Sequence record: OZ035799.1
DNA from: Justusliebigvirus alia
Strand: one strand, 5' to 3'
Length of the DNA: 64,000 bases
The position numbers and the translations under genes were made by a program. Below the pieces are notes generated by a model. The model did no database searches. It worked only from the letters and a program-made list of their open reading frames with translations, and was not told the DNA's origin. Below, piece after piece: positions 47,814 to 63,910 of this stretch; position 1 is the stretch's first letter; each line of letters starts with the position of its first letter.

Positions 47814-47822
47814 AATAACTCC

Positions 47823-48386
47823 TTAAATAATTTTATTCATGTCTTGACAATGTAAAAGGTGTGAAACAGCTTTCCTAGGATCATCACTACCTAAACGGTA
47901 TGTGTGAAATAAATATAACCCACGTAATAAACCTAGCCTTTTGTTGTTAGCATGTAATGCTTTAGAGAAAATTATATCAAACTGTATTGACCTTTCCTCA
48001 AAAGGTATTTCATTCCACAGGCTCTTACGAAAGAGAAGAAAGAATCCTGCTAAGATAGCATCTGTAGGTACTTCCTCTATTGAGTTTCCCCATTCTAGAT
48101 GTGCTCTTTTTGCAATCTCAATGTGGTGTAATATATTTGGATCTTCACTTCTTTCATTATTAAATAATTGATATGTTGATCCCAATCTATTACAAGATGC
48201 ACCAAGAACATCAAAATCAGGATTTGAACGGACTATTGATTCCAACCAAGCAGGTTGTTCTGGAAGAAGAAACATTGTATCAATGTCTCTTAGGCAAATC
48301 CAACTATCTTCTGGTAAGACACTTATTGTGTCATTGATACCTTTTCCAATATCTCCAGAAAGATAGGGAGTTATGTGAAATATCAT
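47823..48386 (-). CDS. Putative glycosyltransferase-like protein
   Basis: ICLRDIDTMF (DxD-like). Adjacent to two other glycosyltransferase candidates. Low-confidence motif call. Confidence 0.3.
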   Translation of the reverse strand: MIFHITPYLSGDIGKGINDTISVLPEDSWICLRDIDTMFLLPEQPAWLESIVRSNPDFDVLGASCNRLGSTYQLFNNERSEDPNILHHIEIAKRAHLEWGNSIEEVPTDAILAGFFLLFRKSLWNEIPFEERSIQFDIIFSKALHANNKRLGLLRGLYLFHTYRLGSDDPRKAVSHLLHCQDMNKII

Positions 48387-48443
48387 ACTCCCTCCGTATT
48401 ATTACTTTAGCATTTTTAGACTAAAAAGTCCAAATGGTTTTAC

Positions 48444-48638
48444 CTATTGATTACGTTTTGCGAGTTCCATTTGGATAGCTAAACTGTGATCTCGTGCTTC
48501 CATATACTCTTTATATGTTTCATTAAGATGATCACGACAAACATCACGCAGTTTAATCAGTTTATCTGTAGGGATACCACTAAGATCATCCCAAGATTTT
48601 ACAACTTCACCAGTATCATTGATCCCAATGGTTTTCAT
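48444..48638 (-). CDS. Hypothetical small protein
   Basis: 64 aa ORF in a run of tightly packed small genes. Confidence 0.3.
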   Translation of the reverse strand: MKTIGINDTGEVVKSWDDLSGIPTDKLIKLRDVCRDHLNETYKEYMEARDHSLAIQMELAKRNQ

Positions 48639-48846
48639 CTACAACCTCCTTAATTGCTACAGCACAGTTTTTGCAGATACACTGCCCTTTACCTTTAGAA
48701 ATCTGGATGTAAGGTTCATTTTCATTTTCGCCCTTACGTGAGTCATATATTACAGAATTGAAGCACACAACGCAAATATTTTTTAAGATTGTATACTTAT
48801 CAACTTTCTTTTTTGTTTTAAAGTTAACTTCAATAACATCAGCCAT
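48616..48846 (-). CDS. Zinc-ribbon small protein
   Basis: Two CxxC pairs (CVVCF ... CICKNC). Start probably the internal ATG at 48846, coupled to the upstream stop. Confidence 0.35.
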   Translation of the reverse strand: MADVIEVNFKTKKKVDKYTILKNICVVCFNSVIYDSRKGENENEPYIQISKGKGQCICKNCAVAIKEVVDENHWDQ

Positions 48847-49124
48847 CAGTGTAACACTCCCAGTATGTTGCTTTGTGACATAACCATAGAACATTCAACA
48901 TTATCGTGACTACGTGAAAAACGTTCCCAAACATCTTCATCGACTCGTAAAGCTATACAAGGATAGACGTTATCATTGATCATTTCAATTGAATAAACAT
49001 CTATATTGTCTTCGTCTTCGATGAACATCATTGCAAACTGTTCTAAATGTTTCCTAATGTAATGTACATCCTCTTCTGTAAGACCAATAACAAGATAACT
49101 TGCAACGATAACGCCATCTTTCAT
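48846..49124 (-). CDS. Hypothetical small protein
   Basis: 92 aa ORF. Confidence 0.3.
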   Translation of the reverse strand: MKDGVIVASYLVIGLTEEDVHYIRKHLEQFAMMFIEDEDNIDVYSIEMINDNVYPCIALRVDEDVWERFSRSHDNVECSMVMSQSNILGVLH

Positions 49125-49134
49125 CTATATCTCC

Positions 49135-49644
49135 TTAGCGATAGAATTGATGTTCTTTGTAGCGGTACACTAGAACCATATCTTTTTCCCAGTGTGCTCT
49201 TATTGTAGATTTTTTAAAGTATAATGCTCCTTTTGTAATATCTAATGCAATTCGTAATTCTGGAAAATGCGTATCGAGATAAAGTAGACGTTCTGCTATA
49301 GCCTTAGCTTCCTTCCACTTATCACGTTCCATAACGTTGAATGTCTTTGTGTAAGAGAATTGTCCTTTTTGAAACAAAACTTCTTTTATAGTATCAGGGA
49401 AATATGAATCTCTAGCCCTATTTAATACTACATTACCAACAGCAGACATACCGCGCTTTCCTTGATTACGACTTTCTGCATAGATTGCACAAGCTAATAG
49501 ATTTTCTTTACTATCACGCTTTGTACACTTGTGAACTACTTTAGCAGTTTTTACGTTTGCAGCTTCGGCTTGCGCCACAACAGGTGTAAATGTAAAAGCA
49601 GTTAAGGATAGTAACGCAATTGCGACAAAGGTTTTTATTGACAA
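49135..49644 (-). CDS. Secreted cell-wall hydrolase (SleB/CwlJ Hydrolase_2-like), putative endolysin
   Basis: N-terminal signal peptide (IALLSLTAFTFTPVVAQA). Motifs LLACAIYAESRNQG, AVGNVVLNRARDS, FPDTIKEVLFQKGQFS match the SleB-type hydrolase family. TTG start with AGGAGG RBS. Confidence 0.6.
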   Translation of the reverse strand: MSIKTFVAIALLSLTAFTFTPVVAQAEAANVKTAKVVHKCTKRDSKENLLACAIYAESRNQGKRGMSAVGNVVLNRARDSYFPDTIKEVLFQKGQFSYTKTFNVMERDKWKEAKAIAERLLYLDTHFPELRIALDITKGALYFKKSTIRAHWEKDMVLVYRYKEHQFYR

Positions 49645-49675
49645 ACTTGCCTCCTATTTTGTTAAACGAACTTTT

Positions 49676-49704
49676 ATTGTAACACAGAAGAGGCTGTTTT
49701 GCAA
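49676..49704 (-). promoter_or_regulatory. Sigma70-like promoter (minus strand) for the hydrolase gene
   Basis: On the minus strand: TTGCAA - 17 nt - TACAAT, located just after a hairpin and 30 nt upstream of the RBS. Confidence 0.5.
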
Positions 49705-49735
49705 GTGGAGGGGGATAATCCCCTCTTACACCCTG

Positions 49736-50338
49736 TTAGATGTTGTAAACCTTCGTATGAGTTACTACACCATCTTCTACAAAATCAATACGTTCTTGAT
49801 CCGTAACTAGTGCAGACAATACTTTAAATTTAATTGTTACACGTTCAAAAGCTGGTTGACCATCTTTAAGATAATTATGTTCAGTTGTTACTGTCTTGTT
49901 TACAAAATCAACTTTTGCTTTACCGTTTTCACGCAAGTGGAATGTTTTTCCTGCTTTATACACAATTTCAACATTACCTTCGAGAGTAATTCCTTCGAAA
50001 AGTTCACCCTCTTCTTCATTTTCTTCACTTTTGAACAGACGACGAAACTCTTCCATATCAAGATAAACAACATCTTCAGAATAACTATCAGTAAGGTATG
50101 TCTTACCATCCATTAACCCGAAATATTGCCAGATCGCAGAATAAACATCACTAGTTGATCCAAGGGTATCTCTGAGTTTAGTTCCACGGATTACTTCATA
50201 AACTTCAAAATTGAAACCAGACTGCAAAGCATTAAACAGTACATCACTAACTTCTAAAGCATAATCTTCATTGTTGTCAATATCCACAAGAAAATTGCCG
50301 CTACGAATAAGTTTTTGACCTTCTAAAGTAATACTCAT
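49736..50338 (-). CDS. Hypothetical protein
   Basis: 200 aa ORF with AAGAGGAG RBS, downstream of TerD. Confidence 0.45.
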   Translation of the reverse strand: MSITLEGQKLIRSGNFLVDIDNNEDYALEVSDVLFNALQSGFNFEVYEVIRGTKLRDTLGSTSDVYSAIWQYFGLMDGKTYLTDSYSEDVVYLDMEEFRRLFKSEENEEEGELFEGITLEGNVEIVYKAGKTFHLRENGKAKVDFVNKTVTTEHNYLKDGQPAFERVTIKFKVLSALVTDQERIDFVEDGVVTHTKVYNI

Positions 50339-50349
50339 TGTTTTCTCCT

Positions 50350-50383
50350 CTTCTATTTAAAATATGCGCCCCGAAGGGCGCTA
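50350..50383 (-). terminator. Hairpin terminator after TerD (minus strand)
   Basis: GCGCCC-TTCG-GGGCGC followed by an A/T-rich tail. Confidence 0.45.
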
Positions 50384-50390
50384 TGATTTA

Positions 50391-50987
50391 TTACTCGAAC
50401 CAATCGTCGCCAGCGCCAAACGCTTTAACTACATCATAAATGTCAAGTCCAGCTTTACCTACACCATATGCTTTCAGTTTCCATTCGTTATCTTCCCGCA
50501 CCAGGGAGGCAACGTGGCAAATGGTATTACCTGCAAGTTCTGGAGCCAAGAAGTCAAAGTCCAGCAGTTCAACGTTACGTTCATCATCGAAGATTTTAAG
50601 GAAACCTTCGGTAGCGTGACCAAGGCGTTTCTTACCCGTTTCGTCATCAATAGTAATTACGAATGCAATTTCCTGTGCTTCAGCAGAGATATTATCCAGT
50701 GTAACATCAATCTGCTCCATTTGCCCTACACCGTCACGAACATCTTCACCTGCAAAAGTAGAACGTTCAGGATCAAATTTCTGTGCGTAGCATACCAAGT
50801 GGCGAGGAGACAACAGTTCCGGCAGACCAGATGCATTGTGTCGGCAAATCAGAGCACTAACATCCAGATCCAGTTTTTCGTTAGATTTCCAAGAGAATTC
50901 CAGACGAATGCGTTTCAGTGCTGGTGCAATCTTTTTCAGAGAAACTTTTTCGCTAGAACCTTTTTTCAGGGAAATTTTCTGAGTCAT
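50391..50987 (-). CDS. terD: TerD-family stress protein (tellurite resistance TerD/TerE/TerZ-like)
   Basis: Matches TerD across its length when compared by eye with E. coli TerD as recalled: ISLKKGSSEKVSLKK, LDLDVSALIC, Ca-site-like FAGEDVRDGVG, IAFVITIDD, and C-terminal NEWKLKAYGVGKAGL. Confidence 0.85.
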   Translation of the reverse strand: MTQKISLKKGSSEKVSLKKIAPALKRIRLEFSWKSNEKLDLDVSALICRHNASGLPELLSPRHLVCYAQKFDPERSTFAGEDVRDGVGQMEQIDVTLDNISAEAQEIAFVITIDDETGKKRLGHATEGFLKIFDDERNVELLDFDFLAPELAGNTICHVASLVREDNEWKLKAYGVGKAGLDIYDVVKAFGAGDDWFE

Positions 50988-51059
50988 AATTTATTATCTC
51001 CTTTGTTGTTAATTTACGTTGTCTATTTTACTAATCTTTTCTACAAAGTCAAGCGTTTT

Positions 51060-51854
51060 TTACGCTTTTGCTCCAAATTTTTTAACCCACTCGCCAAACT
51101 CTTCAGATAGCAGTTTATCGTAAAGTTCTTCGTCAGACAAGGACAAATCTGCAATACCGATAAAATCAACATTATCGTATTCTTTTGCCAAGTCTTTCAG
51201 GAATTTAAAGTTTGCATTACCTACACCAACCATAAACCAGTAAACAGGAGTGTTGCGGTGTTTGTTCAGCAAACTACGTACTGCTGAAGTATCCATGTTC
51301 TCCCCGTCAGTTTGGAAGAAAATCATTGCAGGAGTACGATCAACTTGTGCATCAGTATCTACAACCTGTTCTACAACAGTACGTGTAACTTCTACACGTT
51401 CTTTTTTACCAGTTAGTTTAGCAAGGAAACCCTTAGCCGGAACTTCTTCATATTCAACGACTTCGCGTGTAATATTTTTCGTAGGTACACTACCGAAGTA
51501 TGTACCATAGATCTCTTGCATTACTGGAGCATAAGCTGTACCACCATTGATGCAAACATTAGACATGCAAGAGCCGACATAATCATCATATACATCAGCC
51601 GTTGCAGGAGGCAGTTCAAAAGAAGAACTATTGAAAGCCCACATGTCAATCTGTGCATTATCATCAAACTTCATACCAAACGGCAGCAGCTTACCTACAA
51701 AATCACTAACAGTGCCATCACGATACAGCTCACACATACTCCCCGAAATATCTAAGGCGCTACCGACACGAAGAACAACATCGTTAATCTTTTTCTTACG
51801 CAGAGATACAGTAAGAGTTTCTTGACGTTTTTTAAGACTGATTTTATTGGACAT
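51060..51854 (-). CDS. von Willebrand factor A domain protein (TerY-like)
   Basis: MIDAS motif DISGSM near the N-terminus, downstream Thr/Asp ligand candidates; adjacent to TerD. Confidence 0.65.
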   Translation of the reverse strand: MSNKISLKKRQETLTVSLRKKKINDVVLRVGSALDISGSMCELYRDGTVSDFVGKLLPFGMKFDDNAQIDMWAFNSSSFELPPATADVYDDYVGSCMSNVCINGGTAYAPVMQEIYGTYFGSVPTKNITREVVEYEEVPAKGFLAKLTGKKERVEVTRTVVEQVVDTDAQVDRTPAMIFFQTDGENMDTSAVRSLLNKHRNTPVYWFMVGVGNANFKFLKDLAKEYDNVDFIGIADLSLSDEELYDKLLSEEFGEWVKKFGAKA

Positions 51855-51855
51855 A

Positions 51856-52125
51856 TTATTTCTCCTTTCTGAGTGTAATGTTAGTAACTTCTAAATCCAC
51901 TTCTACCATTTCTGTATCATATGAAATACAGCTAAGTTGACCTCTTTGTGAACCGTTCAGACACATTGCTTGGTTTGTATTAACCTTAATAAACACTAAG
52001 TTTCTGAACGTATCTAAACCAGAATCTTGATAGGCAACATAATATACAAATGTATCACCTACGTCAAGTTCTCCAAAACATTTAGGTTCATCTGATTTGT
52101 CGTCTTTGATATTAAATTTAAGCAC
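51856..52125 (-). CDS. Hypothetical protein
   Basis: 89 aa ORF, coupled to neighbours. Confidence 0.35.
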   Translation of the reverse strand: MLKFNIKDDKSDEPKCFGELDVGDTFVYYVAYQDSGLDTFRNLVFIKVNTNQAMCLNGSQRGQLSCISYDTEMVEVDLEVTNITLRKEK

Positions 52126-52681
52126 TATCTCCTCCTTTACCTACTTTCCAACCTAAATAGAAAGCCTCTCTAGTGATTTTTTGCAACTCGTTTAAAGAGA
52201 TAGTTACAACTAAATCATCTTCAATTTCTAGCTTTGAGTCTTCTTCTGTCTCAATGCAAGTATTATGCACTTTGTGGTAAGGATTGTCAACACGTTTAAA
52301 TTTATTATTTTCAGTGCTGAAGAAGCAATCTGGATCTTCTTCCCCATCACCCCAACCCTGGTTAGGATCTTCTTCAGATCTTTCTGTTGGGATCTCGCCT
52401 GTAAAGTGCTCTTCTAATACCAGAGCAATCCCATCTCCAAGATCGGAAGAGAACATCAAATTACAAACTTCTTCCCAAGGCATAGACCACTTAAATCTTT
52501 TACGATTGCCATGTTTATCTTCTTCGTTAGAGAAAACACTACCATAACTATCATAATTCCCATACATCTCTTCGACAACCTTACCACCTTTCAAAAGAAA
52601 TAGGTAGCAAGGAGAGCCATCGAAAGAGGTAGAAAGAGCAGCATTACCAGACTCTTTGCACAAGAAACTAAAACACCCCAT
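52118..52681 (-). CDS. Hypothetical acidic protein
   Basis: 187 aa. C-terminal motif SLNELQKITREAFYLGWKVGKG is repeated in the next small ORF. Confidence 0.4.
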   Translation of the reverse strand: MGCFSFLCKESGNAALSTSFDGSPCYLFLLKGGKVVEEMYGNYDSYGSVFSNEEDKHGNRKRFKWSMPWEEVCNLMFSSDLGDGIALVLEEHFTGEIPTERSEEDPNQGWGDGEEDPDCFFSTENNKFKRVDNPYHKVHNTCIETEEDSKLEIEDDLVVTISLNELQKITREAFYLGWKVGKGGDSA

Positions 52682-52881
52682 TATACACCAGCCTTAAGAT
52701 CAATTAAGGCCAAAGTTGTTTCAGAGTGTGTTTGCTCGTCTACAGGTGCAGTCATATGATAATACAAAAAATCTTCGGCATCATACCAATCTGATTCTTG
52801 ACCTTGTTTCCAACCATCAATGAAAGCATCTTCCATAATGGTTTGCAATTCTTCACGAGTTAAGTGAATATCTTTACTCAT
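52681..52881 (-). CDS. Hypothetical small protein (paralogous motif)
   Basis: LTREELQTIMEDAFIDGWKQGQ repeats the motif at the C-terminus of the 52118 ORF. Confidence 0.3.
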   Translation of the reverse strand: MSKDIHLTREELQTIMEDAFIDGWKQGQESDWYDAEDFLYYHMTAPVDEQTHSETTLALIDLKAGV

Positions 52882-53087
52882 TACACATTCTCCTCTTTTA
52901 CCAATTCCATCGTTGAATTGTCAAAACCATCTTTAGAAGAATAGGTATAGACAGAACGTAGTTCTCGCAGGACAGTGAATACATTAGGATCATCTAACCA
53001 AGTATCCTGGAGGAGAACATAACGATCTTCATTGTCATACTGAACAGCAATCATAGAACCAGACAGTTTGTAAATTTTAATATTCAT
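52881..53087 (-). CDS. Hypothetical small protein
   Basis: Small ORF coupled to the TelA-like gene; start uncertain. Confidence 0.3.
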   Translation of the reverse strand: MNIKIYKLSGSMIAVQYDNEDRYVLLQDTWLDDPNVFTVLRELRSVYTYSSKDGFDNSTMELVKEENV

Positions 53088-53100
53088 AATATATTTCTCC

Positions 53101-54204
53101 TTAAAGTAGACCACGTTTAACAGTTTGAATCATACCATCTTCAAGAGATTGCACTTCTTGAATGTAATCAATACGAGCAGCACGGGCTTCAGTGTTGATT
53201 CGGTTAGTTTCTTCCAACATTTTAACTAAGTTTTCTTGATCACGACGCAATGTTTCAATATCCAATACTTGACGATTAGCAAGTTGTGTAGCTTCAATTT
53301 GGTTTTGTGCAGCCAGATCACTACCCATTGCAATAGCAGCATTAAATTCATTCAGTACATTGTTCTGCGTATCGGCTGCTTTCTTCTGGCGTAGACTTTC
53401 AATATACATAGAAAAGTTTGCAGAGTAAGCAGGAATAACATTATTCACAATATTACGGGCTGATCGCATCAAACTTGCAGATACTTTCTGCATACTTTGT
53501 ACACGTGGCCCCATCTGAACACACAGTAAGCGTAAGGCTTTCAGGTCTGCAATACGAATTTCAAGCAGATCCATAGTATCACGAGTACGTTGACGCTCTT
53601 CTACCTCATTTTCAGGTAGTGTATTAAGGCGAATTTCTTCTTTTTCATAAGTAGCTGTTAGAAGCTCTATATCCCTGTTTAAGCTAAGAGCATATTTTGC
53701 AATAGCTTCTTCTAAACGTTGCAGATATCGTAAAGAATCTTCTTCTTTTTTCAAGTCTGTTTGGAGTGTCTTTACCAAACCTTCAATACGGTTATTGATG
53801 GTGTCAAATTCTCCAAACAAATCTTCTTTCATACCTAAAACTTTCTTAACTAGTTTACCTAAACCTTTAGATTGTTTAATAGAGTTAGGATCAAGTTGCT
53901 TTGCTTGCTTAATAAGTGCAGTTAAACGTTCACTCATTTCATCTCCCTGAGATGAACGCTGGTGTTTAAGCACTTCAGCATTAAGGTTACGAAGAGTAAG
54001 TCCTGCATCAGCACCAACCTGTTCAATCTCTTCACGAGACATTGGAGGCAGCATTTGTACAGGTCGTGCAACAGCAGGGGCATATACAGGGCTTGCATCC
54101 ATAGCACTTGGAGCAAACAAAGACTTACTTTTTTCTGTTGTTGCCGTGAATACACTCATTTCAGACGGTTTGCTTTTTACGGCACTGATAAAAGGACTGG
54201 ACAT
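53101..54204 (-). CDS. TelA-like (toxic anion resistance family) coiled-coil protein, putative
   Basis: 367 aa with a disordered N-terminus and long coiled-coil body. Size and architecture fit TelA/KlaA proteins and the Ter gene context. No strict motif was verified. Confidence 0.4.
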   Translation of the reverse strand: MSSPFISAVKSKPSEMSVFTATTEKSKSLFAPSAMDASPVYAPAVARPVQMLPPMSREEIEQVGADAGLTLRNLNAEVLKHQRSSQGDEMSERLTALIKQAKQLDPNSIKQSKGLGKLVKKVLGMKEDLFGEFDTINNRIEGLVKTLQTDLKKEEDSLRYLQRLEEAIAKYALSLNRDIELLTATYEKEEIRLNTLPENEVEERQRTRDTMDLLEIRIADLKALRLLCVQMGPRVQSMQKVSASLMRSARNIVNNVIPAYSANFSMYIESLRQKKAADTQNNVLNEFNAAIAMGSDLAAQNQIEATQLANRQVLDIETLRRDQENLVKMLEETNRINTEARAARIDYIQEVQSLEDGMIQTVKRGLL

Positions 54205-54272
54205 TCAATTTCCTCCATATTCTTTAGTAGATGGTGATACCTCTGTACCACCATCATAACACAAATTAAGTA

Positions 54273-55124
54273 TTAAACAAACATATCTAAATAATTTGTA
54301 GTAATAAATGCTCCATCTGCTTCCAGATTAACATAACCAGTAGCATTAGTGGTTAAGAAATCCAGATCGAAGGACTCTTTAACACCCCGTACCTCAATAC
54401 GAGAGATATCGAATACAGGTAGTGTAACAGCCTCTTCGTGCAATACCGTACCTTTGTATGTTGCCTTAATGATAAACTTGATATTACCCGTTCCAGCATC
54501 ATACAAAACACTTTCAAACCCTTTGAGAGTATACTTATCACCAGAAGTGAAGTGCAAAGTTGCTTTGTTTACAGTACGTTTCTTACGAGGAGTTCCTTTC
54601 ACACGTTTATGATCACTACGTTTTTTGTACTTAGGAATGAATACAAACGATACATTCTGAAGAAAGGTATCAACATCCAGGATTTTAATATCCTCTGTTG
54701 CAGCAAATTTTGAAGTCGTTGCATCAAAATGCTTTTCCCTGCGATCATACATAAAGATATCAAACCGATCTTCTAAATCAAACAAATTATGTATTTTAAT
54801 TTCAGAATGCTTGCGCATTGCAGCAACCTTGAACTCTTCAAAACGTGGGTGTTCTACAAGTTCTTCAAGTTTTACACCAAAGACAGTATATTGTTTCGAA
54901 GTTTTTTCTGGCGTTGGCATTACAGAAGCATAATCACCGATTGCGCTTTTAAAGCAAAATTGTTCTTGACCTGTATTTTTACCAACGAATTTACAGTATT
55001 CGTCATCGTGCATACTTTCTTTGGTAGTACCAACAAACTCAAAACCATCTTTATTCTTCTCAAGAATTTCTTGATTAAAGATCCAACCTTCCAGGCGATA
55101 CACTTTACCAACTTCTAGTTTCAT
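54273..55124 (-). CDS. Hypothetical protein
   Basis: 283 aa ORF with AAGGAG RBS in the Ter island. Confidence 0.45.
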   Translation of the reverse strand: MKLEVGKVYRLEGWIFNQEILEKNKDGFEFVGTTKESMHDDEYCKFVGKNTGQEQFCFKSAIGDYASVMPTPEKTSKQYTVFGVKLEELVEHPRFEEFKVAAMRKHSEIKIHNLFDLEDRFDIFMYDRREKHFDATTSKFAATEDIKILDVDTFLQNVSFVFIPKYKKRSDHKRVKGTPRKKRTVNKATLHFTSGDKYTLKGFESVLYDAGTGNIKFIIKATYKGTVLHEEAVTLPVFDISRIEVRGVKESFDLDFLTTNATGYVNLEADGAFITTNYLDMFV

Positions 55125-55159
55125 CTGTTTCTCCTTCTTATTTAATCTGTATTAAATTA

Positions 55160-55750
55160 TTAACGACGACGTGAGCTACTAAAACTACGTTTCGACGAAG
55201 AATAACTTTTCGAAGACTTACTATAAGAGCTAATAGGGCTTGAGTAAGACTTACGAGCAGAGTAATCACTATTCACTTTTGTTGTTGACGGGCGTGAATA
55301 CGTTTGTACACTTTGCTGCTTAATTGTGTTTTGTTTAGTGGTTGTATATGTATTTCCTTGTTTATCATAAAAACTATGCTTTTGTGTTGTATATGCTTTA
55401 CTGTTAGTTGTAGGAGCAGCGTTGTTATTAATAATTGTTGTGCTGCTACCACCATCTCTATAACCGCCACCGCCACTATTACCACTCAACATATGACCAA
55501 GAAGCATACCTGTAGCAAACTCACCTACGCCAGAAGAACCACTGCCGCCTCCTTGCACAACAACTGTTGAAGGTTGTGCAGGTGCTGCTTGAACAACTTG
55601 AGGTGCAGGCTGATTTACATATTGTTCATCTACCATCTGATTTGGTGTTTGTTGGTAACGTTGATTTTGTACATTTTCAGAATCATCACAACCTACCAGC
55701 AATGCACTACCTAATACAACTGCAACAATAAAAGATTTAATGTTTTTCAT
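55160..55750 (-). CDS. Lipoprotein with Gly-rich and Ser/Tyr/Thr-rich low-complexity regions
   Basis: Signal peptide plus lipobox (VVLGSALLVGC). Start moved to the ATG at 55750 (RBS GAGAGG). Gln/Pro-rich linker, GGGSGSSG, then S/Y/K repeats. Confidence 0.5.
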   Translation of the reverse strand: MKNIKSFIVAVVLGSALLVGCDDSENVQNQRYQQTPNQMVDEQYVNQPAPQVVQAAPAQPSTVVVQGGGSGSSGVGEFATGMLLGHMLSGNSGGGGYRDGGSSTTIINNNAAPTTNSKAYTTQKHSFYDKQGNTYTTTKQNTIKQQSVQTYSRPSTTKVNSDYSARKSYSSPISSYSKSSKSYSSSKRSFSSSRRR

Positions 55751-55943
55751 TTGTAACCCTCTCATTTAAAGTCTCAACACAATTTTTAAAATCCCTAGAG
55801 AAACAATACATCTGTTCTCCGTTCCTGTTGATAGTAATTGTATGGTTATCAATATATGTTGTCAAGATAAAAATCAAACAAAACAACCCTAGAGCAAAAC
55901 AAATATTTTCAAACAGAATCCAAAGAACACGTAAAACCACCAT
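55737..55943 (-). CDS. Small membrane protein
   Basis: Single hydrophobic helix LWILFENICFALGLFCLIFIL. Confidence 0.3.
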   Translation of the reverse strand: MVVLRVLWILFENICFALGLFCLIFILTTYIDNHTITINRNGEQMYCFSRDFKNCVETLNERVTNEKH

Positions 55944-55956
55944 CAGATCACCTCAA

Positions 55957-55978
55957 CAAAGCCCCCGAAGGGGCTTAA
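55957..55978 (-). terminator. Hairpin after TerC (minus strand)
   Basis: AAGCCCC-TTCG-GGGGCTT; weak U tail. Confidence 0.4.
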
Positions 55979-55982
55979 TGAA

Positions 55983-56960
55983 TTAAGCAACAGTCTGGTC
56001 TTCTTTTTCAGGGAAGATTAAACTTGCAATAACACCCAGCCCAAGAGTACCTAACACAATATACATACTGATCGTCGGATCAATGTGTGCTGGCAGGAAA
56101 CTCACTTTTGCGTGCAGAGTTTCTGCAAACGGGTGATACATCAGTTTTACACCCACAAATACCAGGACTACGATAACTGCTTTCTCCAGATGAACCAAAT
56201 ACTTCAGTGCAACACTAAGAACAAAGAACAGAGCACGTAAACCTAAGATTGCACAGAGCATCGAAGAGAACACCAGCAGAGGTTCTTGTGTCACCGCAAT
56301 TACTGCTGGAACAGAGTCTACTGCAAAGATTACGTCAACCATTTCCATTACAAACACACAAACCAGAGCCGGAGTTGCTACACGAACACCATTTTTGATT
56401 GTGAAGAACTTCTCACCATCCATCTGATCAGATACAGGGAACAGCTTACGAACAATGCGAGTAGCCCAGTGTTTAGAGTAATCAACTTCTGCATCATTAT
56501 CCCCAGCGAATACCATTTTAGCCGCACAGAAAAGGATGACAGCACCGAAGAAGATATTAACATACCAGCCCAAACTCAACAAGTAAGTGCCTACTGCTAC
56601 AAACACACCTCGGAAGACAATCGCACCTGCAATACCCCAAAGTAGAATTTTGTGCTGCAAGTGTGTGCTTTTAATACCAAAACTTGCGAAGACTGCCACA
56701 AATACTACTAAGTTATCTACAGAAAGAGATTTCTCCAACACATACCCACTCAAGAACAAGCTCGCAAAATCAGCACCGTGTTGGAAGTATACAAAACCAT
56801 AGTAGGCTAATGATACCCCAATCCAGAAAATTGACCAGCCAATTGCAGATTTAAATGAAATTTCTTTGTTTTCTCTGTGTCCAAAGAAGTCAATACAAAT
56901 CGACAAGACTAAAATACCCACTAAAACAACCACATCAATAATTGGGAAACCCAGTTGCAT
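55983..56960 (-). CDS. terC: TerC-family integral membrane protein
   Basis: Multi-pass membrane protein with the TerC signature YVLEKSLSVDNLVVF and a second-half repeat VDVIFAVDSVPAVIAV. Confidence 0.8.
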   Translation of the reverse strand: MQLGFPIIDVVVLVGILVLSICIDFFGHRENKEISFKSAIGWSIFWIGVSLAYYGFVYFQHGADFASLFLSGYVLEKSLSVDNLVVFVAVFASFGIKSTHLQHKILLWGIAGAIVFRGVFVAVGTYLLSLGWYVNIFFGAVILFCAAKMVFAGDNDAEVDYSKHWATRIVRKLFPVSDQMDGEKFFTIKNGVRVATPALVCVFVMEMVDVIFAVDSVPAVIAVTQEPLLVFSSMLCAILGLRALFFVLSVALKYLVHLEKAVIVVLVFVGVKLMYHPFAETLHAKVSFLPAHIDPTISMYIVLGTLGLGVIASLIFPEKEDQTVA

Positions 56961-57037
56961 TCTTTTCTCCTCTTTAATGCGGAGGACAATCCTCCGCTCT
57001 ATGTCTTATACTATAAACTGTTTTTAAAGAAAGTCAA

Positions 57038-57286
57038 CTAGTTCAGTTCTGTAATTTTAAGTTTATCTTCTTTGTTAATGATAGGGAAAGCTACAGCATC
57101 ACCTACGTCATCAATAAAGCAAATAGCAAGACCACCTTCCACTTTGCTAATCTGACCATTAAAGGCGTGATACGGGGCAGGAACTTGATCTCCATCTTCA
57201 AGGAGAATAGCCTCGTAAACCTTGCCGATAGTACAATCACGAGTGTTTCTAAATTTTTCAAGCACTTCAACATTTACTTTACGCAT
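57038..57286 (-). CDS. Hypothetical protein
   Basis: 82 aa ORF; hairpin GCGGAGG-N5-CCTCCGC at 56979-56997 lies between it and the TerC RBS. Confidence 0.35.
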   Translation of the reverse strand: MRKVNVEVLEKFRNTRDCTIGKVYEAILLEDGDQVPAPYHAFNGQISKVEGGLAICFIDDVGDAVAFPIINKEDKLKITELN

Positions 57287-57300
57287 ATAAAAATCCTCTC

Positions 57301-57507
57301 TTATTTGTTAGATTGAAAGATACCACGAAGTACCGCAAGAATGAACGTCACACAGACTACACTCCAAAACGTTACAGGAACATGATGCCAGTCTAAGCCG
57401 ATAATGTCAATCATATAATTGTATGCTAAAAGCAGTAGCCAACTAGGGATTAACACAATCAAGAACACAACAATAAAACAACCTAATACTGCTAAAACAC
57501 CTGCCAT
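57301..57507 (-). CDS. Small two-TM membrane protein
   Basis: Hydrophobic segments VLAVLGCFIVVFLIVLIPSWLLLL and VTFWSVVCVTFILAVL. Confidence 0.35.
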   Translation of the reverse strand: MAGVLAVLGCFIVVFLIVLIPSWLLLLAYNYMIDIIGLDWHHVPVTFWSVVCVTFILAVLRGIFQSNK

Positions 57508-57516
57508 ACTTTCTCC

Positions 57517-58233
57517 TTATTTCAGTTTGTAAACAATTACATTTAAACCTTTGTTTACTAGAGTTTCTTCGATCATAAGTTTTACAATATTCCAAGAACC
57601 TCCAGCCAAACCACAACCAAGCATTGGTAAACCTACAATTTTACCGCCTGAAGATACAACATCGTCTCCCATACTATCTAACGCATTATAGATAGCTTCA
57701 TAATTCAGGTCACGCTTGCCTTCCTCACGACGACTATAACCATATTGTCCATATAAATTATAAATTGTCAAATTGTTTTCTGTATACTTGGTAAACGTAC
57801 CTAATTTTTTATAATCACCACGTTTAGTGGCACAATCTGCTTTAAACGCACCAGGCCACTTGCTTTTAATTTTTGGTGCAATACCACTACCCATAGTGCA
57901 AAAACAGTTACAGCAGTGTGCTATAGCGTCTATATCGCCTCTCTCGGCTGCTGCTAAAAGATCACCGTATACCTCAATGATACCTGCTGGATAACTTGTT
58001 ACAATTTCATCTTCCCAGTACATTTTCTCTACACCACCGATCAGTGCAAAGTTTTGTGTAATGCGATCATCAATATAGTTAAGACCTGAAACATACACAG
58101 CGTATTCATCCTGTGCTGTAATACCTTGCACACGAATTCTTAAGACACCATCTTTATCTGTTGCTACACGCCCAAAATCTTTTTCTGTAATATTGGTGAT
58201 AGGATCTCCGAAAGTCATTACTTTATTAGACAT
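57517..58233 (-). CDS. Macro-domain protein (putative ADP-ribose / ADP-ribose-derivative binding or processing)
   Basis: Compared by eye with MacroD-type proteins: GDLLAAAERGDIDAIAHCCNC (DAIVNAAN-like), MGSGIAPKI (GGGV..AI-like), KIVGLPMLGCGLAGGS (IAFP.ISTGIYG-like). ATG overlaps the PRTase stop (ATGTCTAA). Confidence 0.5.
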   Translation of the reverse strand: MSNKVMTFGDPITNITEKDFGRVATDKDGVLRIRVQGITAQDEYAVYVSGLNYIDDRITQNFALIGGVEKMYWEDEIVTSYPAGIIEVYGDLLAAAERGDIDAIAHCCNCFCTMGSGIAPKIKSKWPGAFKADCATKRGDYKKLGTFTKYTENNLTIYNLYGQYGYSRREEGKRDLNYEAIYNALDSMGDDVVSSGGKIVGLPMLGCGLAGGSWNIVKLMIEETLVNKGLNVIVYKLK

Positions 58234-59083
58234 AATAATCCCCTTTAACATTAGATTTGTTGATAATGTTGCTTTCAAAAAATTGACGTAGGAAATCAAA
58301 GTTCTCTTTATATTTTTCAATGTTATTGTAGCCTTCTGCAAGGCAACCAAAGAACAGTTGTTCTACATAATACAAAGGAAGTTGTGAAAGTGCAATTTTA
58401 AAATCAACTTCGCTTTGACTCATTAGATACTTAATAGGACGAACCAAACATTTAGCATCAGTTTCTTGCTTAATCATTTTAATAAAAGCTGCCAGGTTAT
58501 TGATATAGTTGAAGTTAAGTGCAGCTTCGGTATTGGCTTCTGTACCTTCATACTTTGCAAAGTACAGGAAAAACGTATCGTTTTCAACACCTTCTTTGTC
58601 TAAAATTTCAATAAGTTTTTCTTCGTGCGTTCCTGTAATATTAACATCATCAATGAAAATCAGAGTTTTATTACCCCAGAAATCACGATTGATAGAGAAA
58701 GTGTCACCATCGATCAAAGCCTTACGATCTTCTTTGCTAAGAAATCCATAATCATTGATATAGCTCACTTTACGATGAACGATATCCCACTCCACTGGTT
58801 TACCACCTTTGATAGAGATTAGGTAGTTGAGGTGGTCTACAAAATGTTCAGATAACACTGTAGCTGCATTTTTCACATAGTTATATGGAGATGGAATAAC
58901 AACAAAACTTTCATTTACCAGTCGTTCTTCATACTTAGAAAAGAAACTTTCAGCCAGAATGCGCCCCATTCTTTTTGCTGCCTGGTTACTACCAAACTTT
59001 AGTTTGGAATAATCTGCAATGTTAAATTTTGCTTCCTTCAGGTTAGTAAAAGTATTAGCAAAATGTTGAATTTGATTACGCAT
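58226..59083 (-). CDS. Phosphoribosyltransferase-like protein (type I PRTase fold) with C-terminal helical extension
   Basis: PRPP-binding loop motif KTLIFIDDVNITGTHEE (hydrophobic-DD-xxTG-T). Start overlaps the stop of the upstream HAD gene. Confidence 0.55.
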   Translation of the reverse strand: MRNQIQHFANTFTNLKEAKFNIADYSKLKFGSNQAAKRMGRILAESFFSKYEERLVNESFVVIPSPYNYVKNAATVLSEHFVDHLNYLISIKGGKPVEWDIVHRKVSYINDYGFLSKEDRKALIDGDTFSINRDFWGNKTLIFIDDVNITGTHEEKLIEILDKEGVENDTFFLYFAKYEGTEANTEAALNFNYINNLAAFIKMIKQETDAKCLVRPIKYLMSQSEVDFKIALSQLPLYYVEQLFFGCLAEGYNNIEKYKENFDFLRQFFESNIINKSNVKGDYYV

Positions 59084-59732
59084 TAATAAGTTCCTCTTTT
59101 TTAAGTTTAGCCAACAAGTCTTCTGGATTAATAATATGACAGAACTTCATCCCTATGTCAACAGCTTTTCCATCATAGATCAAACTATCTCCAACGTGTA
59201 AGATCTCCTCTGGTGCGAGATCAAACGTTACCATTTCATCAAAAGAGAGTTTAAAAAACCTAGGATCTGGTTTACACAAGCAAAACTCATCAGAAAAATG
59301 CATAAAGTCAAATGGTAATTTTGTCAAGCCAGAATATACAGCTAAGAAACTACCAGGTACAAAATTGGTATTGCTCTTAATACTCAAAGAATAGGTTGAA
59401 CTTAGCTCTTCCAACTTCTTGCAAAGTTCAGGGTTTAATGTTGGAGGATGTTTTATAAACATTGCTAAACAGTCTCTTTTTAACCCATCTACTTTATCAA
59501 GATCAATGTTCAAACGAGCAGAAAGTGTTTCCCAAGCATTTCTAGATGTTCCACAAATGCCTTTTTCTGCTTTTAAATCCAGGAGAGTTTTTACCTCTTT
59601 ATATACGGTAGCTGCTTCTACCTCAGAACAAGAGGCATACTCGGCAATAACCTTGTTGCGTTCTTCTGCATACAAAGGATTAGCAGTAATAAGAGTATTC
59701 CATACATCAAAAGAAATATGCTTAACAGTCAT
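59076..59732 (-). CDS. HAD-superfamily hydrolase (phosphatase/dehalogenase-like)
   Basis: Motif I-like HISFDVWNTLI (DxxxTL) and motif IV HVGDSLIYDGKA. Start moved to the ATG at 59732 (RBS GGAGGA). Confidence 0.55.
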   Translation of the reverse strand: MTVKHISFDVWNTLITANPLYAEERNKVIAEYASCSEVEAATVYKEVKTLLDLKAEKGICGTSRNAWETLSARLNIDLDKVDGLKRDCLAMFIKHPPTLNPELCKKLEELSSTYSLSIKSNTNFVPGSFLAVYSGLTKLPFDFMHFSDEFCLCKPDPRFFKLSFDEMVTFDLAPEEILHVGDSLIYDGKAVDIGMKFCHIINPEDLLAKLKKEELINA

Positions 59733-59901
59733 TTTTAATCCTCCGTCCAAAAGAATATCATCTGCTTAATTTTATTGATCTCTTGATGTAGTAACTTTCC
59801 AGCATGTGATTGATCTTTAATATTGACAGCAAGAATTTCAAGCTCCGTCAGTTTTTCTTGGATAGCTTTATATTCATCATCTGTAAGCATTTTCTTCCCC
59901 T

Positions 59902-60093
59902 TTAGAATGGTAATCTTTGTATGTCACTTATCCCCACACCAAGAAGTCTAGCAATATCCTTATCTAAAAGCAACTCTTTTTGTTCTAAAATGTTAATCAG
60001 ATCTCCTAATACTTCTTTAATGTCACGATCATTTTTAGCAACGTGACCACCTGCCGTATCAACTTTATCTTTAAAAACAAAGTAATGATCCAT
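59902..60093 (-). CDS. Hypothetical small protein
   Basis: Short ORF after the AAA+ ATPase terminator; start likely at the internal ATG with GGAGGG RBS. Confidence 0.3.
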   Translation of the reverse strand: MDHYFVFKDKVDTAGGHVAKNDRDIKEVLGDLINILEQKELLLDKDIARLLGVGISDIQRLPF

Positions 60094-60099
60094 AATACC

Positions 60100-60133
60100 C
60101 TCCATATAAATAAAGGAGGCTTTCGCCTCCTTT
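60100..60133 (-). terminator. Rho-independent terminator after the AAA+ ATPase gene (minus strand)
   Basis: AAAGGAGGC-GAAA-GCCTCCTTT followed by ATTTATAT. Confidence 0.55.
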
Positions 60134-60139
60134 TATCAC

Positions 60140-61300
60140 TTAGTAAGAACGACCACCAAACACATACTCTGTGTAGTTTTTACGTTCTTTGTTTTTAATA
60201 ACAACTTCAATGTTGTTGCCTTTATCATCGGTGAACACAAAGTGATAACCGTCACCACCCATTGTACGGATGTGTTTTTCATCATACGTCAGCAAGATAC
60301 GGTCTACACCCCAGTAGTAGTCACCTTCTTCATCTTTGTCTTCTACTGTAACGACCCCTTCCATTTCAGGAAGATGCTCTTCTCCTAGCTTATGGTCTAC
60401 AGCTACAACATAACGATTACCGCTAAACAAACCCTGTGCTGTCATACCGTCAATATCGGTATCTGCCGAAACATCTCCTGTACGATCTACACCGTTGACT
60501 TTCAGAAGTTTAACTTCTTTTGCAGCATAGCGGTGTTCAGTAATACTGATACCCATTAATGCAAGTGCATCAGAGAATTTGTCATTAGGGTAACGGTTAA
60601 GTTCTTCTACTAATGACTGAACAATATCAAAGTTCAAGTCCACGGACAGATTATAAAGCGTTTCAAAATCTGGTAAAAAGGCTTTGTTCTCCAGATTTTT
60701 AGCCAGATAGTCATCCATAGTAGCTTTAGGTAGTTTCTTATAGCTAAAGCTGTAGAAAATACGGCTAGGGCGATTACGCAAAAATTCTGATACATAACCA
60801 TCATTTTTAGTCAATACAAACAGCTTGTCATAGCCACCAACACCATCCAGCAGGGTAAGCAAACCATCCTGTGCATCTTTTTCAGCATACAGTTTATCAA
60901 ATTCATCGATCATAATCATCACAGGTTGTGTGATTTTAGACATAAAATTGATAAAGCCTTCACCATTAAAAGCACTACCGATAGAAATAGTAGGAATACC
61001 CATTTCACGAAGAGCAGAAGACAGCATTTTAGCTTGCAAAGTTTTACCGCTACCCTTCGTACCCTCAAGGAGAACACCTGTGTTTTTACCTTTACGGCTA
61101 AGGAACGTCTTGATAATACGTTCTGATTTATCATCAGTATCACCGTATGTTACTGAAGGGACTTCCATATCGTTTTTAGGATACAGGAAGAACTCACCAC
61201 TTTGAGTAACACCTACACCAAAAGTTCCTGCTGGAATTTCTTCAATATCTGTGCCAGACTTCTGACGCAGGAAGATTTGATTGCCGAATACTGTAAACAT
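60140..61300 (-). CDS. AAA+ ATPase
   Basis: Walker A GTKGSGKT, Walker B VMIMIDEFD, sensor-1-like VLTKN, Arg-finger-like RNRPSR. Confidence 0.55.
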   Translation of the reverse strand: MFTVFGNQIFLRQKSGTDIEEIPAGTFGVGVTQSGEFFLYPKNDMEVPSVTYGDTDDKSERIIKTFLSRKGKNTGVLLEGTKGSGKTLQAKMLSSALREMGIPTISIGSAFNGEGFINFMSKITQPVMIMIDEFDKLYAEKDAQDGLLTLLDGVGGYDKLFVLTKNDGYVSEFLRNRPSRIFYSFSYKKLPKATMDDYLAKNLENKAFLPDFETLYNLSVDLNFDIVQSLVEELNRYPNDKFSDALALMGISITEHRYAAKEVKLLKVNGVDRTGDVSADTDIDGMTAQGLFSGNRYVVAVDHKLGEEHLPEMEGVVTVEDKDEEGDYYWGVDRILLTYDEKHIRTMGGDGYHFVFTDDKGNNIEVVIKNKERKNYTEYVFGGRSY

Positions 61301-61320
61301 AGTTTTCTCCTCTGTTTAAT

Positions 61321-61791
61321 TTAGTCAGATTCCCAAATGTTGTCTTTCTTAATCCACATTCGTTGATTATCTGAACCTCTATAACGTTTCGTTGTTGGTT
61401 GATTCATATCATACTTACCATCTATCACTATGTCAACCAGTTTTTTAATTTTTTCTGGAATTTCTTCAAAAAGATATCCTGTATATAAGACAATATCTTT
61501 TTTGTTTCCAAAACAATCTCTTACCTTTTCAAGAACATACTCTACAGTGTCAATGTTCTCTTTGTCAAGAGGTTCACCACCTAAAACGGTTAATCCTTTA
61601 ATGAAAGGTCGAGATAAATCTTTCAAGATAAGATCTAATGTTTCAGTAGTGAACTCTTGTCCGTAGTTATACGACCAGGCTTTCTGGTTAAAGCAGCCAC
61701 GGCAACCGTGGCTACAACCGCTCACCCACAAAGAGCATCTTACACCGTCACCGTTGAGCATGTCAACAGGTTCATATCCGGCGTAATTCAA
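61321..61791 (-). CDS. nrdG: Anaerobic ribonucleotide reductase activating protein (radical SAM)
   Basis: Cys cluster CSLWVSGCSHGCRGC (CxxxCxxC) near the N-terminus, ~156 aa, directly downstream of and overlapping nrdD. Confidence 0.8.
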   Translation of the reverse strand: MNYAGYEPVDMLNGDGVRCSLWVSGCSHGCRGCFNQKAWSYNYGQEFTTETLDLILKDLSRPFIKGLTVLGGEPLDKENIDTVEYVLEKVRDCFGNKKDIVLYTGYLFEEIPEKIKKLVDIVIDGKYDMNQPTTKRYRGSDNQRMWIKKDNIWESD

Positions 61792-62729
61792 AAATGTTTC
61801 TCCCTTTCTAATACTTCTTGCATTTTACCTTTATTATAAGGGCGAGAGTTAGGGGCAGAAAGGTATCCTGACACTCTTCTGATTACAGATATAGATTCTT
61901 CCTCATGATTGCCACAACTTGGACACTCGAAGCCTTTAGCTGTTGCCTTAAATTCACCATGAAAACCACATTTGAAACACTGATCTACAGGTTGGTTCAC
62001 GCCAAAATAAGGAATTTTGTTGTAGGCATAATCTACAAGAGTTTCCAGTGCTTGCAAGTTATTTTTAAGGTTTGGTGTTTCTACATAACCTATGTTCCCA
62101 CCATTACTGATTTGTGCAAAACCTTCCTCATAATCCCACTTTTGGAACGGGGTAGTGTGCATCCACACAGGTTGATGGAAAGAGTTTGTCAAGTAGTCAC
62201 GATCAATAGAACCTGGATAGCGATCATTTAATGCTTTGGCAAATTTATAGCACAAGGATTCTGCTGGTGTTCCATACAAACTAAAAGCTAAACCAGAACG
62301 TTCTTTAAATGTGCCACAGATATCCTTCATATATTGAAGGATGTTTTTACCCATTGCTTTTGGATTGGTGTTACCTGGGTATAAAATCTCCATAGCTTCT
62401 GCTAAACCTACATAACCGATACTAATAGAGGCATAACCACCTTCGAATAGCTTACCAATCTCTTCATTAGCTTCTAGTCGAGCTAAAGCCCCTTCCATAA
62501 ACAATGTAGGGTTTTGAGATGCTTTGGTATGTCTAATACGGTTAACACGTAGTATATGTGCCTTATACGCCATCTCCATATGTTGTTCCAACAGTTCAGT
62601 AAATAAGATGCCCTTTTCACGGGACTCTGCTGCAATGATAGGTAAGTTTAAAGAAACCACGCCTAAGTTGAAACGACCATCATATTTTTCACCTTGCTCT
62701 GTTGCATAGTATGACAAGAAACTTCTACA
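61788..62729 (-). CDS. nrdD: Anaerobic ribonucleoside-triphosphate reductase, exon 2
   Basis: Glycyl-radical motif RRVSGYL and C-terminal Zn ribbon CFKCGFHG...CPSCG. The ORF-track N-terminus MALRATLNIM is intron-derived; the exon probably starts at the CRSFLS codon. Confidence 0.8.
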   Translation of the reverse strand, partial: CRSFLSYYATEQGEKYDGRFNLGVVSLNLPIIAAESREKGILFTELLEQHMEMAYKAHILRVNRIRHTKASQNPTLFMEGALARLEANEEIGKLFEGGYASISIGYVGLAEAMEILYPGNTNPKAMGKNILQYMKDICGTFKERSGLAFSLYGTPAESLCYKFAKALNDRYPGSIDRDYLTNSFHQPVWMHTTPFQKWDYEEGFAQISNGGNIGYVETPNLKNNLQALETLVDYAYNKIPYFGVNQPVDQCFKCGFHGEFKATAKGFECPSCGNHEEESISVIRRVSGYLSAPNSRPYNKGKMQEVLEREKHF

Positions 62730-63867: not shown

Positions 63868-63875
63868 TAATCCTC

Positions 63876-63910
63876 CGTGGAAAATAAAAGCCAGCTTAAT
63901 GCTGGCTTTA
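63876..63910 (-). terminator. Hairpin terminator/attenuator immediately upstream of the nrdD RBS
   Basis: AAAGCCAGC-ATTA-AGCTGGCTTT followed by TATTTTCC, then RBS GGAGGA. Confidence 0.5.

Follow-up and report, generated by a model that had tools for sequence, protein, structure and literature searches.

The subject of this analysis is an 11.5-kb region at positions 49736-61300 of a 64,000-nt stretch (hereafter the window) of sequence record OZ035799.1 from Justusliebigvirus alia. It carries four Ter-type genes, encoding TerD, a stand-alone vWA protein, a TelA-like protein and TerC, together with genes for a HAD-superfamily hydrolase, a phosphoribosyltransferase (PRTase), a macrodomain protein and an AAA+ ATPase, among which a number of small open reading frames (ORFs) are interspersed (Table 1). 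The region is 100% identical to OZ035770.1, also from Justusliebigvirus alia, a phi92-like E. coli myophage, and the island is 98-99% identical among more than 50 phi92-like E. coli myophages. All genes under study are carried on the minus strand, which fits the negative GC skew of the window from ~37 kb on. An earlier interpretation made without database searches (the sequence-only reading) had described them as a Ter-type stress island joined to a HAD/PRTase/macro operon, a candidate nucleotide-metabolite or counter-defence system.

Table 1. Genes and sequence features in and beside the region. Positions are those of the window, Pfam cut-offs in bits are given in brackets, and L numbers are locus handles.
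Feature	Position	Strand	Evidence and remarks
200-aa ORF	49736-50338	-	no Pfam family; beyond terminator; no detectable homologue in phAPEC8-type loci
Terminator-like GC hairpin closing Ter block after TerD	50366-50381	-	sequence
TerD-domain protein	50391-50987	-	PF02342, E 4.1e-28, 98.6 bits (25.3); PDB 2KXT, Klebsiella TerD, 8.4e-15
Stand-alone vWA, TerF C-terminal type	51060-51854	-	PF10138, E 1.6e-38, 133.3 bits
89-aa ORF	51856-52125	-	no Pfam family; PHROG of unknown function
187-aa ORF	52118-52681	-	no Pfam family; N-terminal ~140 aa a strongly conserved phage family
66-aa ORF	52681-52881	-	no Pfam family; N-terminus repeats C-terminal motif of preceding 187-aa ORF
77-aa ORF	52881-53114	-	no Pfam family; PHROG of unknown function
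TelA-like protein	53101-54204	-	PF05816, E 7.9e-34, 117.6 bits
283-aa fast-evolving ORF	54273-55124	-	no Pfam family; ~30% identity in phAPEC8- and Klebsiella-type phages
Lipoprotein	55160-55765	-	signal peptide, lipobox LLVGC, Gly/Ser-rich low-complexity body; phrog_21570
68-aa membrane protein	55737-55943	-	small, hydrophobic
TerC-family integral membrane protein	55983-56960	-	PF03741, E 1.2e-38, 133 bits
GC-rich perfect 8-bp hairpin in TerC leader	56979-56997	-	sequence, GCGGAGGA-TTG-TCCTCCGC
Sigma-70-like promoter, near-consensus, directly upstream of TerC	57010-57037	-	sequence, TTGACT-16-TATAGT
82-aa ORF	57038-57286	-	no Pfam family; phrog_17459
68-aa hydrophobic membrane protein	57301-57507	-	kept after macro gene in relatives; matches L007, L033, L036
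Fusion of ~88-aa N-terminal domain and macrodomain (residues ~88-238)	57517-58233	-	PF01661, E 2.1e-7, 31.3 bits (22)
PRTase_3, ComF-like type I phosphoribosyltransferase	58226-59083	-	PF15610, E 1.5e-41, 143 bits (28.7)
HAD-superfamily hydrolase	59076-59732	-	Hydrolase PF00702, E 6.5e-6, 27.1 bits (26.4)
51-aa ORF	59735-59890	-	no Pfam family; found only in phi92-like loci
67-aa ORF (gp189 homologue)	59902-60105	-	no Pfam family; phrog_17780; BLASTP matches L007, L010, L033, L034, L036
Terminator-like hairpin after ATPase gene	60112-60133	-	9-bp stem, then T-rich tail; phage Paula annotates terminator there
AAA+ ATPase (phi92 gp190)	60140-61300	-	Pfam AAA 1.2e-6; phrog_2376 ATPase 3.6e-104
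NrdG	61321-61791	-	Pfam
NrdD in two pieces	63001-63867, 61788-62759	-	Pfam

Pfam profile searches upheld the TerD, vWA, TelA, TerC, macro, PRTase, HAD and AAA+ domains named in the sequence-only reading, with unchanged coordinates. The overlapping stop and start codons that it described between the HAD, PRTase and macro genes were also read in the sequence, each overlap being 8 nt long (AATGCGTAA for HAD/PRTase and TATGTCTAA for PRTase/macro). In place of its count of at least eight unannotatable ORFs we found nine without a Pfam family above threshold, which match only PHROGs of unknown function, and the lipoprotein and small membrane proteins that it mentioned correspond to one lipoprotein and two small hydrophobic proteins. 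NCBIfam gave no match for TerD, vWA, PRTase or the unannotated ORFs. Similarly, PADLOC models gave no match for the Ter, PRTase and unannotated proteins; apart from DarG for the macro protein, only noise-level Cas12g and mad8 matches were returned. Records of related phages already label the genes as tellurite resistance, TerC, phosphoribosyltransferase, HAD-like protein and macrodomain protein. Biochemical activities and biological roles of all proteins of the locus are given below as predictions.

The PRTase was assigned to PF15610, which is not a salvage enzyme family, and the prospect that it would turn out to be an ordinary purine or pyrimidine salvage enzyme was not borne out. Its loop for binding phosphoribosyl pyrophosphate (PRPP) is intact (LIFIDDVNITGTH, residues 141-153), and D145, D146, T150, G151 and H153 of this loop are invariant in the family together with ~40 further residues, some of them within a helical C-terminal domain. 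The predicted structure has the ComF/type I PRTase fold, and a PDB sequence search with the PRTase profile returned noise only. Approximately 300 homologues were found at 45-80% identity, all with PF15610 and mostly on phage-sized contigs, while no characterised PRTase_3 member was encountered in the literature searched.

In order to map the surroundings of this gene, 47 PRTase_3 loci were gathered from phage records, IMG/VR, GTDB genomes, plasmids and metagenome contigs, and their ORFs were scanned with the window proteins and with divergent bacterial queries. All but one of the 47 phage and bacterial loci (46 of 47) have a HAD gene of this subfamily no more than 10 kb from the PRTase, and it is directly upstream and co-oriented in every one of the 18 loci mapped in detail. 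In a phage database of 50,697 records, the PRTase was present in 156 and the HAD in 155, with almost identical host breakdowns. HAD and PRTase_3 are a fixed two-gene module in which the HAD is the obligate partner. The catalytic residues of the HAD are likewise conserved: the nucleophile D9 in motif I (FDVWNTL, with W11 at the second position after it), S120 of motif II followed by N121, K154 of motif III and D182/D187 of motif IV, with D9, S120, K154 and D182/D187 invariant in the family alignment. Motif I of the PRTase_3-linked HADs, namely that of the window and the partners in L003-L008, reads D-[VL]-W-[NG]-T-L. The nearest solved structure is PDB 2OM6 from Pyrococcus (E 2.8e-22), with the same FDVWNTL motif.

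Among the Ter proteins of the region, the MIDAS (metal ion-dependent adhesion site) residues of the vWA protein are intact (DISGS from residue 35, T106 and D183), and TerC retains its two signature motifs (one is EKSLSVDN from residue 76, the other FAVDSVPA in the stretch starting at residue 206). Such genes are rare in phages, with TerD in 147, TerC in 176 and TelA in 245 of the database records (<0.5%), and they were nevertheless found within 10 kb of HAD-PRTase in six gene orders on viral contigs: TelA-vWA-...-TerC-HAD-PRT-TerD (L004, L035, L041), TerC-vWA-TerD-TerD-TelA-HAD-PRT (L039), TelA-HAD-PRT-vWA-TerC-TerD (L043), TerC-TerD-vWA-HAD-PRT (L044), TerD-TerD-TerC-HAD-PRT (L048) and the window type, HAD-PRT-macro-...-TerC-...-TelA-...-vWA-TerD. 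Bacterial HAD-PRTase pairs stand beside TerD in Bacteroidota (L006, L025, L026, L028), in a Peribacteria metagenome-assembled genome (L029) and in an actinomycete (L030, Actinomycetota); some bacterial loci also have vWA or TerC/DUF475, and L006 has a PP2C/kinase pair. Since rare genes recur in rearranged orders beside the same pair, the co-localisation is far beyond chance and supports a functional link between the Ter genes and HAD-PRTase. The linkage of PRTase and HAD enzymes to Ter clusters that the sequence-only reading cited is present here, and both the pairing and the Ter neighbourhood recur across phages and bacteria. No Pfam or PADLOC match to TerB, to the TerY-phosphatase-kinase triad or to ATP-grasp and other biosynthetic enzymes was obtained for any ORF of the region, and other abbreviated phage Ter operons lack these components as well (PMC7824862).

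A Ter system of this kind was reportedly predicted by Anantharaman et al. in 2012, a model cited here via later papers. Among these, Iyer et al. 2021 (PMC7824862) described phage Ter systems with a PRTase and a HAD for signal biosynthesis and proposed that they act in competition with superinfecting phages, and a terC/terF-vWA/terD/telA cluster has been reported in Klebsiella phage phiKp34 (PMC8386662). In bacteria, ter loci confer phage inhibition, and a K. pneumoniae mutant without terC is less resistant to phage, Zn and Mn (PMC12054061). A mechanism along these lines can be outlined for the phi92-like block. The PRTase would ribosyl-phosphorylate a base-like acceptor using PRPP, the HAD partner would process the product, and the resulting nucleoside-like compound would act on, or be sensed by, a membrane-associated complex of TerD, TelA, vWA and TerC, which in turn would alter the envelope or ion state of the infected cell. 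Most likely, this would serve to keep out superinfecting phages or colicin-like agents and to preserve envelope and ion balance until lysis. The exclusion role would fit the inhibition of phages by bacterial ter loci and the lower phage, Zn and Mn resistance of the terC mutant. In its specific form, that is a PRPP-derived ribosylated messenger made by a DxW-type HAD and PRTase_3 that switches the TerD/TelA/vWA/TerC complex, this mechanism is put forward tentatively and is possible but doubtful.

Alternatively, the Ter genes may serve auxiliary metal homeostasis, with TerC exporting or delivering Mn2+, Zn2+ or Ca2+ and with TerD, vWA and TelA as metal-binding accessories, so that the cell and the metalloenzymes of the phage, such as the neighbouring ribonucleotide reductase, are kept working while HAD-PRTase is a loosely associated nucleotide-salvage pair. 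TerC proteins are reported to be metal exporters and metalation factors (PMC10550928, PMC12096827), terC makes K. pneumoniae resistant to Zn(II) and Mn(II) (PMC12054061), the TerC motifs and vWA MIDAS site are intact as noted above, and nrdDG adjoins the locus in phi92-like as well as in phAPEC8-like phages. All of these observations are in line with metal handling, and we nonetheless regard this explanation as unlikely.

The macrodomain of the third overlapping gene falls in the TARG1/DarG/SCO6735 class, its best match among solved structures being SCO6735 (PDB 5E3B, 3.2e-15), followed by BT1257 (2FG1), TARG1 (3e-10) and DarG (9e-4). Over the macro part only, it also matched the DarG macro region of NCBIfam (E 5.5e-13) and the DarG model of PADLOC (1.1e-13). 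The full DarG model NF048014 scored 48.9 bits in comparison to a cut-off of 250 and was covered at profile positions 4-147 of 338, with its DarT-binding C-terminal domain not matched, and no DarT-like gene was found in the region. Both ADP-ribose-binding loops (GSG and GCGLAGG) are conserved, and Q163 aligns with Gln85 of SCO6735, the position of K84 in TARG1 and K80 in DarG, indicating an SCO6735-type variant. SCO6735, DarG and TARG1 strip ADP-ribose from thymidine in DNA, and hydrolysis of ADP-ribosylated thymidine (dT-ADPr) by SCO6735 needs Gln85 (PMC9411070). The protein is 49% identical to phAPEC8 gp050 and 30% identical over 139 aa to T4 Tk.4 (E 9e-18), which T4 needs for growth on DarTG2, according to a transposon screen and a clean knockout, and which was named AdfM (bioRxiv 10.1101/2025.11.20.689424). 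PhiKZ AdfM gp104 takes DarT2 marks off DNA in vitro (Cell Rep 2026, PMC13309987). On this comparison, an AdfM-type macro protein would counter a DarTG2-type defence by clearing ADP-ribose from the thymidines of phage DNA.

These findings bear on the central claim of the sequence-only reading, in which HAD, PRTase and macro proteins form one three-step ribose-phosphate or ADP-ribose (ADPR) pathway directed against Thoeris, DSR or CBASS-TIR defences. We consider this very unlikely, although the stop/start overlaps in phi92-like phages and the continued adjacency of the three genes in phAPEC8-like phages speak for it, as does the ability of macrodomains to act on soluble ADPR derivatives, the molecules that phage macrodomains mostly target according to PMC9503650. 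The closest characterised homologues of the window protein, however, act on DNA-linked ADP-ribose, and macro homologues occur in 2,972 phage records across many families, ~19 times as many as hold the PRTase; this abundance agrees with the 41% of myoviruses reported to encode a macro domain. Adjacency to the PRTase is restricted to phi92- and phAPEC8-like phages; the macro gene lies 6-8 kb from the PRTase in XaC1 and L035 and is otherwise not in the HAD-PRTase neighbourhood, viral or bacterial. In the Klebsiella-type locus L033, ORFs of 127 and 188 aa separate the PRTase from a 153-aa macro gene, and the opening ~90 residues of that 188-aa ORF (9505-10071) have a homologue in the N-terminal extension of the window macro protein (E 1e-5), which indicates that a deletion joined the start of a neighbouring gene onto the macro gene. 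The PRTase/macro overlap in phi92-like phages thus appears best explained by deletion fusion rather than by old operonic coupling. A MazG-like assignment for the C-terminal half of the L033 188-aa ORF was dropped, as Pfam did not confirm it. Furthermore, Adps, Namat, NadV, NMNAT, NadR and PnuC-type genes, the NAD+ salvage or ADPR-recycling enzymes of the NARP1, NARP2 and NARP3 types, were not detected in the region, which argues against a small-molecule pathway of NAD+ or ADPR. We conclude that the macro gene is probably an independent counter-defence gene with a predicted anti-DarT2 function and not a third pathway enzyme, from which follows the testable prediction that the macro gene of phi92/phAPEC8-like phages is an anti-DarTG2 factor. 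The reading of three overlapping genes as one pathway is appealing but misleading, and is corrected here.

The AAA+ gene had also been listed with these genes in the sequence-only reading. It is cut off from the remaining genes by the terminator-like hairpin at its end and is missing from the phAPEC8-type version of the locus, and on these grounds we read it as a separate transcription unit that is a neighbour and not part of the conserved cassette.

It could still be argued that there is no system at all and that Ter, HAD-PRTase and macro genes are chance neighbours in an accessory region of accumulated unrelated morons, as suggested by the variation among genera in the region between conserved genes (gp047 or the 51-aa ORF, presence or absence of AAA+, extra ORFs in L033) and by block ORFs such as the 187-aa family that also occur in phages without Ter genes, but genes as rare in phages as Ter would not be expected beside HAD-PRTase both in three bacterial phyla and in at least six viral lineages whose arrangements are independent of one another, and this is the least probable of the explanations considered.

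In summary, we lean on balance towards reading the 11.5 kb as a composite of three things, namely the Ter genes with HAD-PRTase_3, the macrodomain gene and the AAA+ gene, and not as one system, with the Ter block serving superinfection exclusion. Several points weigh against this interpretation or its parts. The position two residues after the HAD nucleophile, where a DxD motif would have its general acid/base Asp, is occupied by Trp11 in the window and by Trp in all seven aligned partners. This makes a simple phosphatase role doubtful, and the protein was filed as a HAD-superfamily hydrolase; the usual 'phosphatase' label for PRTase_3-linked HADs may be wrong, and the invariant Trp might reflect a chemistry other than simple dephosphorylation. 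The Ca2+-binding motif of TerD looks degenerate relative to Klebsiella TerD (2KXT). In roughly half of the HAD-PRTase loci, among them those of rhizobial plasmids, of Rhizobium and Caulobacter phages, of XaC1 and of L003, no Ter gene lies closer than 10 kb, which indicates that the module can work without adjacent Ter genes and that the link is not obligatory. As to the macro protein, its identity to Tk.4 is low and falls to 24% with PhiKZ AdfM gp104 (E 0.002), and its gene adjoins the PRTase in both phi92-like and phAPEC8-like phages, which are two genera, so that a lineage-specific functional link between macro and PRTase may exist.

The composite interpretation places the locus as a further member, in a well-sampled phage subfamily, of a kind of system that is already published. 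What is modestly new is how strictly HAD and PRTase_3 are paired, the Trp that never varies at Asp+2, the origin of the macro junction by fusion and a conserved ORF without a known fold relative, described below. The compact Ter and HAD-PRTase_3 cassette of phi92/phAPEC8-like phages, a group with several isolates obtained on E. coli K-12, offers a possible minimal model for the biochemistry of Ter systems. If the proposed messenger exists, this stripped-down six-gene phi92-like version, being tractable in E. coli, could settle the product and action of Ter, a question open for ~30 years.

Transcription signals around the Ter genes were also surveyed. Where the window has its sigma-70-like site upstream of TerC, a host-dependent promoter is annotated at the equivalent position in phAPEC8, and the two together suggest that the TerC block is expressed by host RNA polymerase. 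A terminator role for the perfect hairpin in the TerC leader was rejected, as the coding strand has no T-tract there and the hairpin lies downstream of the promoter-like site; it is listed as a leader hairpin. An Rfam search of positions 48000-64000 showed neither an Mn2+ (yybP-ykoY) nor any other riboswitch before TerC, its single match being an intron in nrdD. This group I intron without a detected ORF interrupts nrdD at 62780-63055 (minus strand; RF00028, 72.3 bits, E 5e-17, full-length model match), while nrdD of phage Paula is uninterrupted at 1,800 nt.

The small ORFs differ in how they are conserved. The 67-aa ORF is kept upstream of the HAD in phi92-, phAPEC8- and Klebsiella-type phages, and in phAPEC8-type loci a 201-aa ORF (gp047) takes the place of the 51-aa ORF directly upstream of the HAD. 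The lipoprotein, the two small membrane proteins and the 283-aa ORF keep their position with only ~30-47% identity between genera, and for the 283-aa ORF only two near-identical clusters were found in 5.8 billion proteins; kept position together with fast divergence is a pattern that fits envelope-facing proteins. The 187-aa ORF has a conserved domain with 294 relatives and invariant GC-FS..C, GNYDSYG and DPNQGWG motifs, and its model (predicted local distance difference test score, pLDDT, 85.5) had no structural relative in PDB or BFVD. Homologues occur also in phage contigs without Ter genes, which indicates that this ORF is probably not Ter-specific. Its C-terminal ~27 aa (LNELQKITREAFYLGWKVGKGGD) are duplicated at the N-terminus of the 66-aa ORF (41% identity, E 2e-5). 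The 200-aa ORF, judged by its position and distribution, probably lies outside the cassette.

Additional observations concern neighbours and relatives. The stretch directly downstream of the island (46196-48386 and 49135-49644, minus strand) encodes a cell-wall hydrolase/endolysin (PF07486, 6.5e-20) together with ORFs annotated in relatives as a glycosyltransferase run, of which only 46196-47179 had a Pfam match (Glyco_trans_1_2, 3.5e-6). The ~198-kb phage contig of L004, with a syntenic TelA-vWA-TerC-HAD-PRT-TerD cassette, encodes an Acb2/Tad1-hairpin protein (19368-19592) 9 kb downstream; as this family comprises anti-CBASS/Thoeris sponges, the cassette there appears to lie in an accessory/counter-defence region. 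Records MG065645, MG065689, MG065639 and MG065650 ('Campylobacter phage A145, A110a, A150, B15') hold island proteins 98-99.7% identical to those of E. coli phi92-like phages, with the exception of the B15 PRTase, which is 65% identical as in phAPEC8-like phages. The Campylobacter host label of these records is probably wrong or reflects contamination.

In comparison to known systems, the NARP1 (Adps/Namat), NARP2 (NadV/NMNAT) and NARP3 (PnuC/NadR) pathways are likewise phage nucleotide-metabolite systems for counter-defence, and NARP2 uses PRPP. The window HAD and PRTase, however, belong to entirely different enzyme families, and no ORF of the region matched a NARP family in Pfam or NCBIfam. 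The PRTase has the type I fold and PRPP-binding loop in common with ComF (H. pylori, PDB 7P0H) and the type I purine and pyrimidine PRTases, from which it differs in its ~12% identity and in an extra helical C-terminal domain with its own invariant residues. The HAD is of the same subfamily as the Pyrococcus horikoshii protein 2OM6, with an identical motif I, although that structural-genomics protein, deposited as 'probable phosphoserine phosphatase', has neither an established function nor an established PRTase partner. The macro protein is of one class with AdfM (Tk.4 and PhiKZ gp104), DarG, TARG1 and SCO6735, with Gln at the Gln85 position and the ADP-ribose loops kept, but it has an additional ~88-aa N-terminal domain and lacks the C-terminal domain with which DarG binds DarT.

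Bacterial ter loci, which combine terZABCDEF with terXYW and a biosynthetic cluster, are found on IncHI2 R478, in E. coli O157 and on K. pneumoniae plasmids, and have known phage-inhibition, colicin and tellurite phenotypes. In both these loci and the window, TerC, TerD, a TerF-type vWA and a TelA-family protein are linked to PRTase and HAD, whereas the window set is without TerA/B/E/Z paralogues, the TerY-phosphatase-kinase triad and ATP-grasp enzymes. No homologue of the phage PRTase was found on ter-bearing enterobacterial plasmids, the plasmid matches being rhizobial together with one from Hymenobacter. The closest published counterparts are the phage Ter systems of Iyer, Anantharaman, Krishnan, Burroughs & Aravind 2021 (Viruses 13:63, PMC7824862), which have TerD, TerC, TelA, a TerF-type vWA, PRTase and HAD in common with the window and are also carried by virulent tailed phages. 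Their examples are Acinetobacter phage vB_AbaM_ME3 and Caulobacter jumbo phages, with mention of 'certain other related smaller tailed phages'. The locus described here differs from these in its ~147-kb Stephanstirmvirinae E. coli phage carrier, in its single TerD without TerB, in the lipoprotein and small membrane ORFs interspersed among the Ter genes and in the AdfM-type macro gene fused next to the PRTase.

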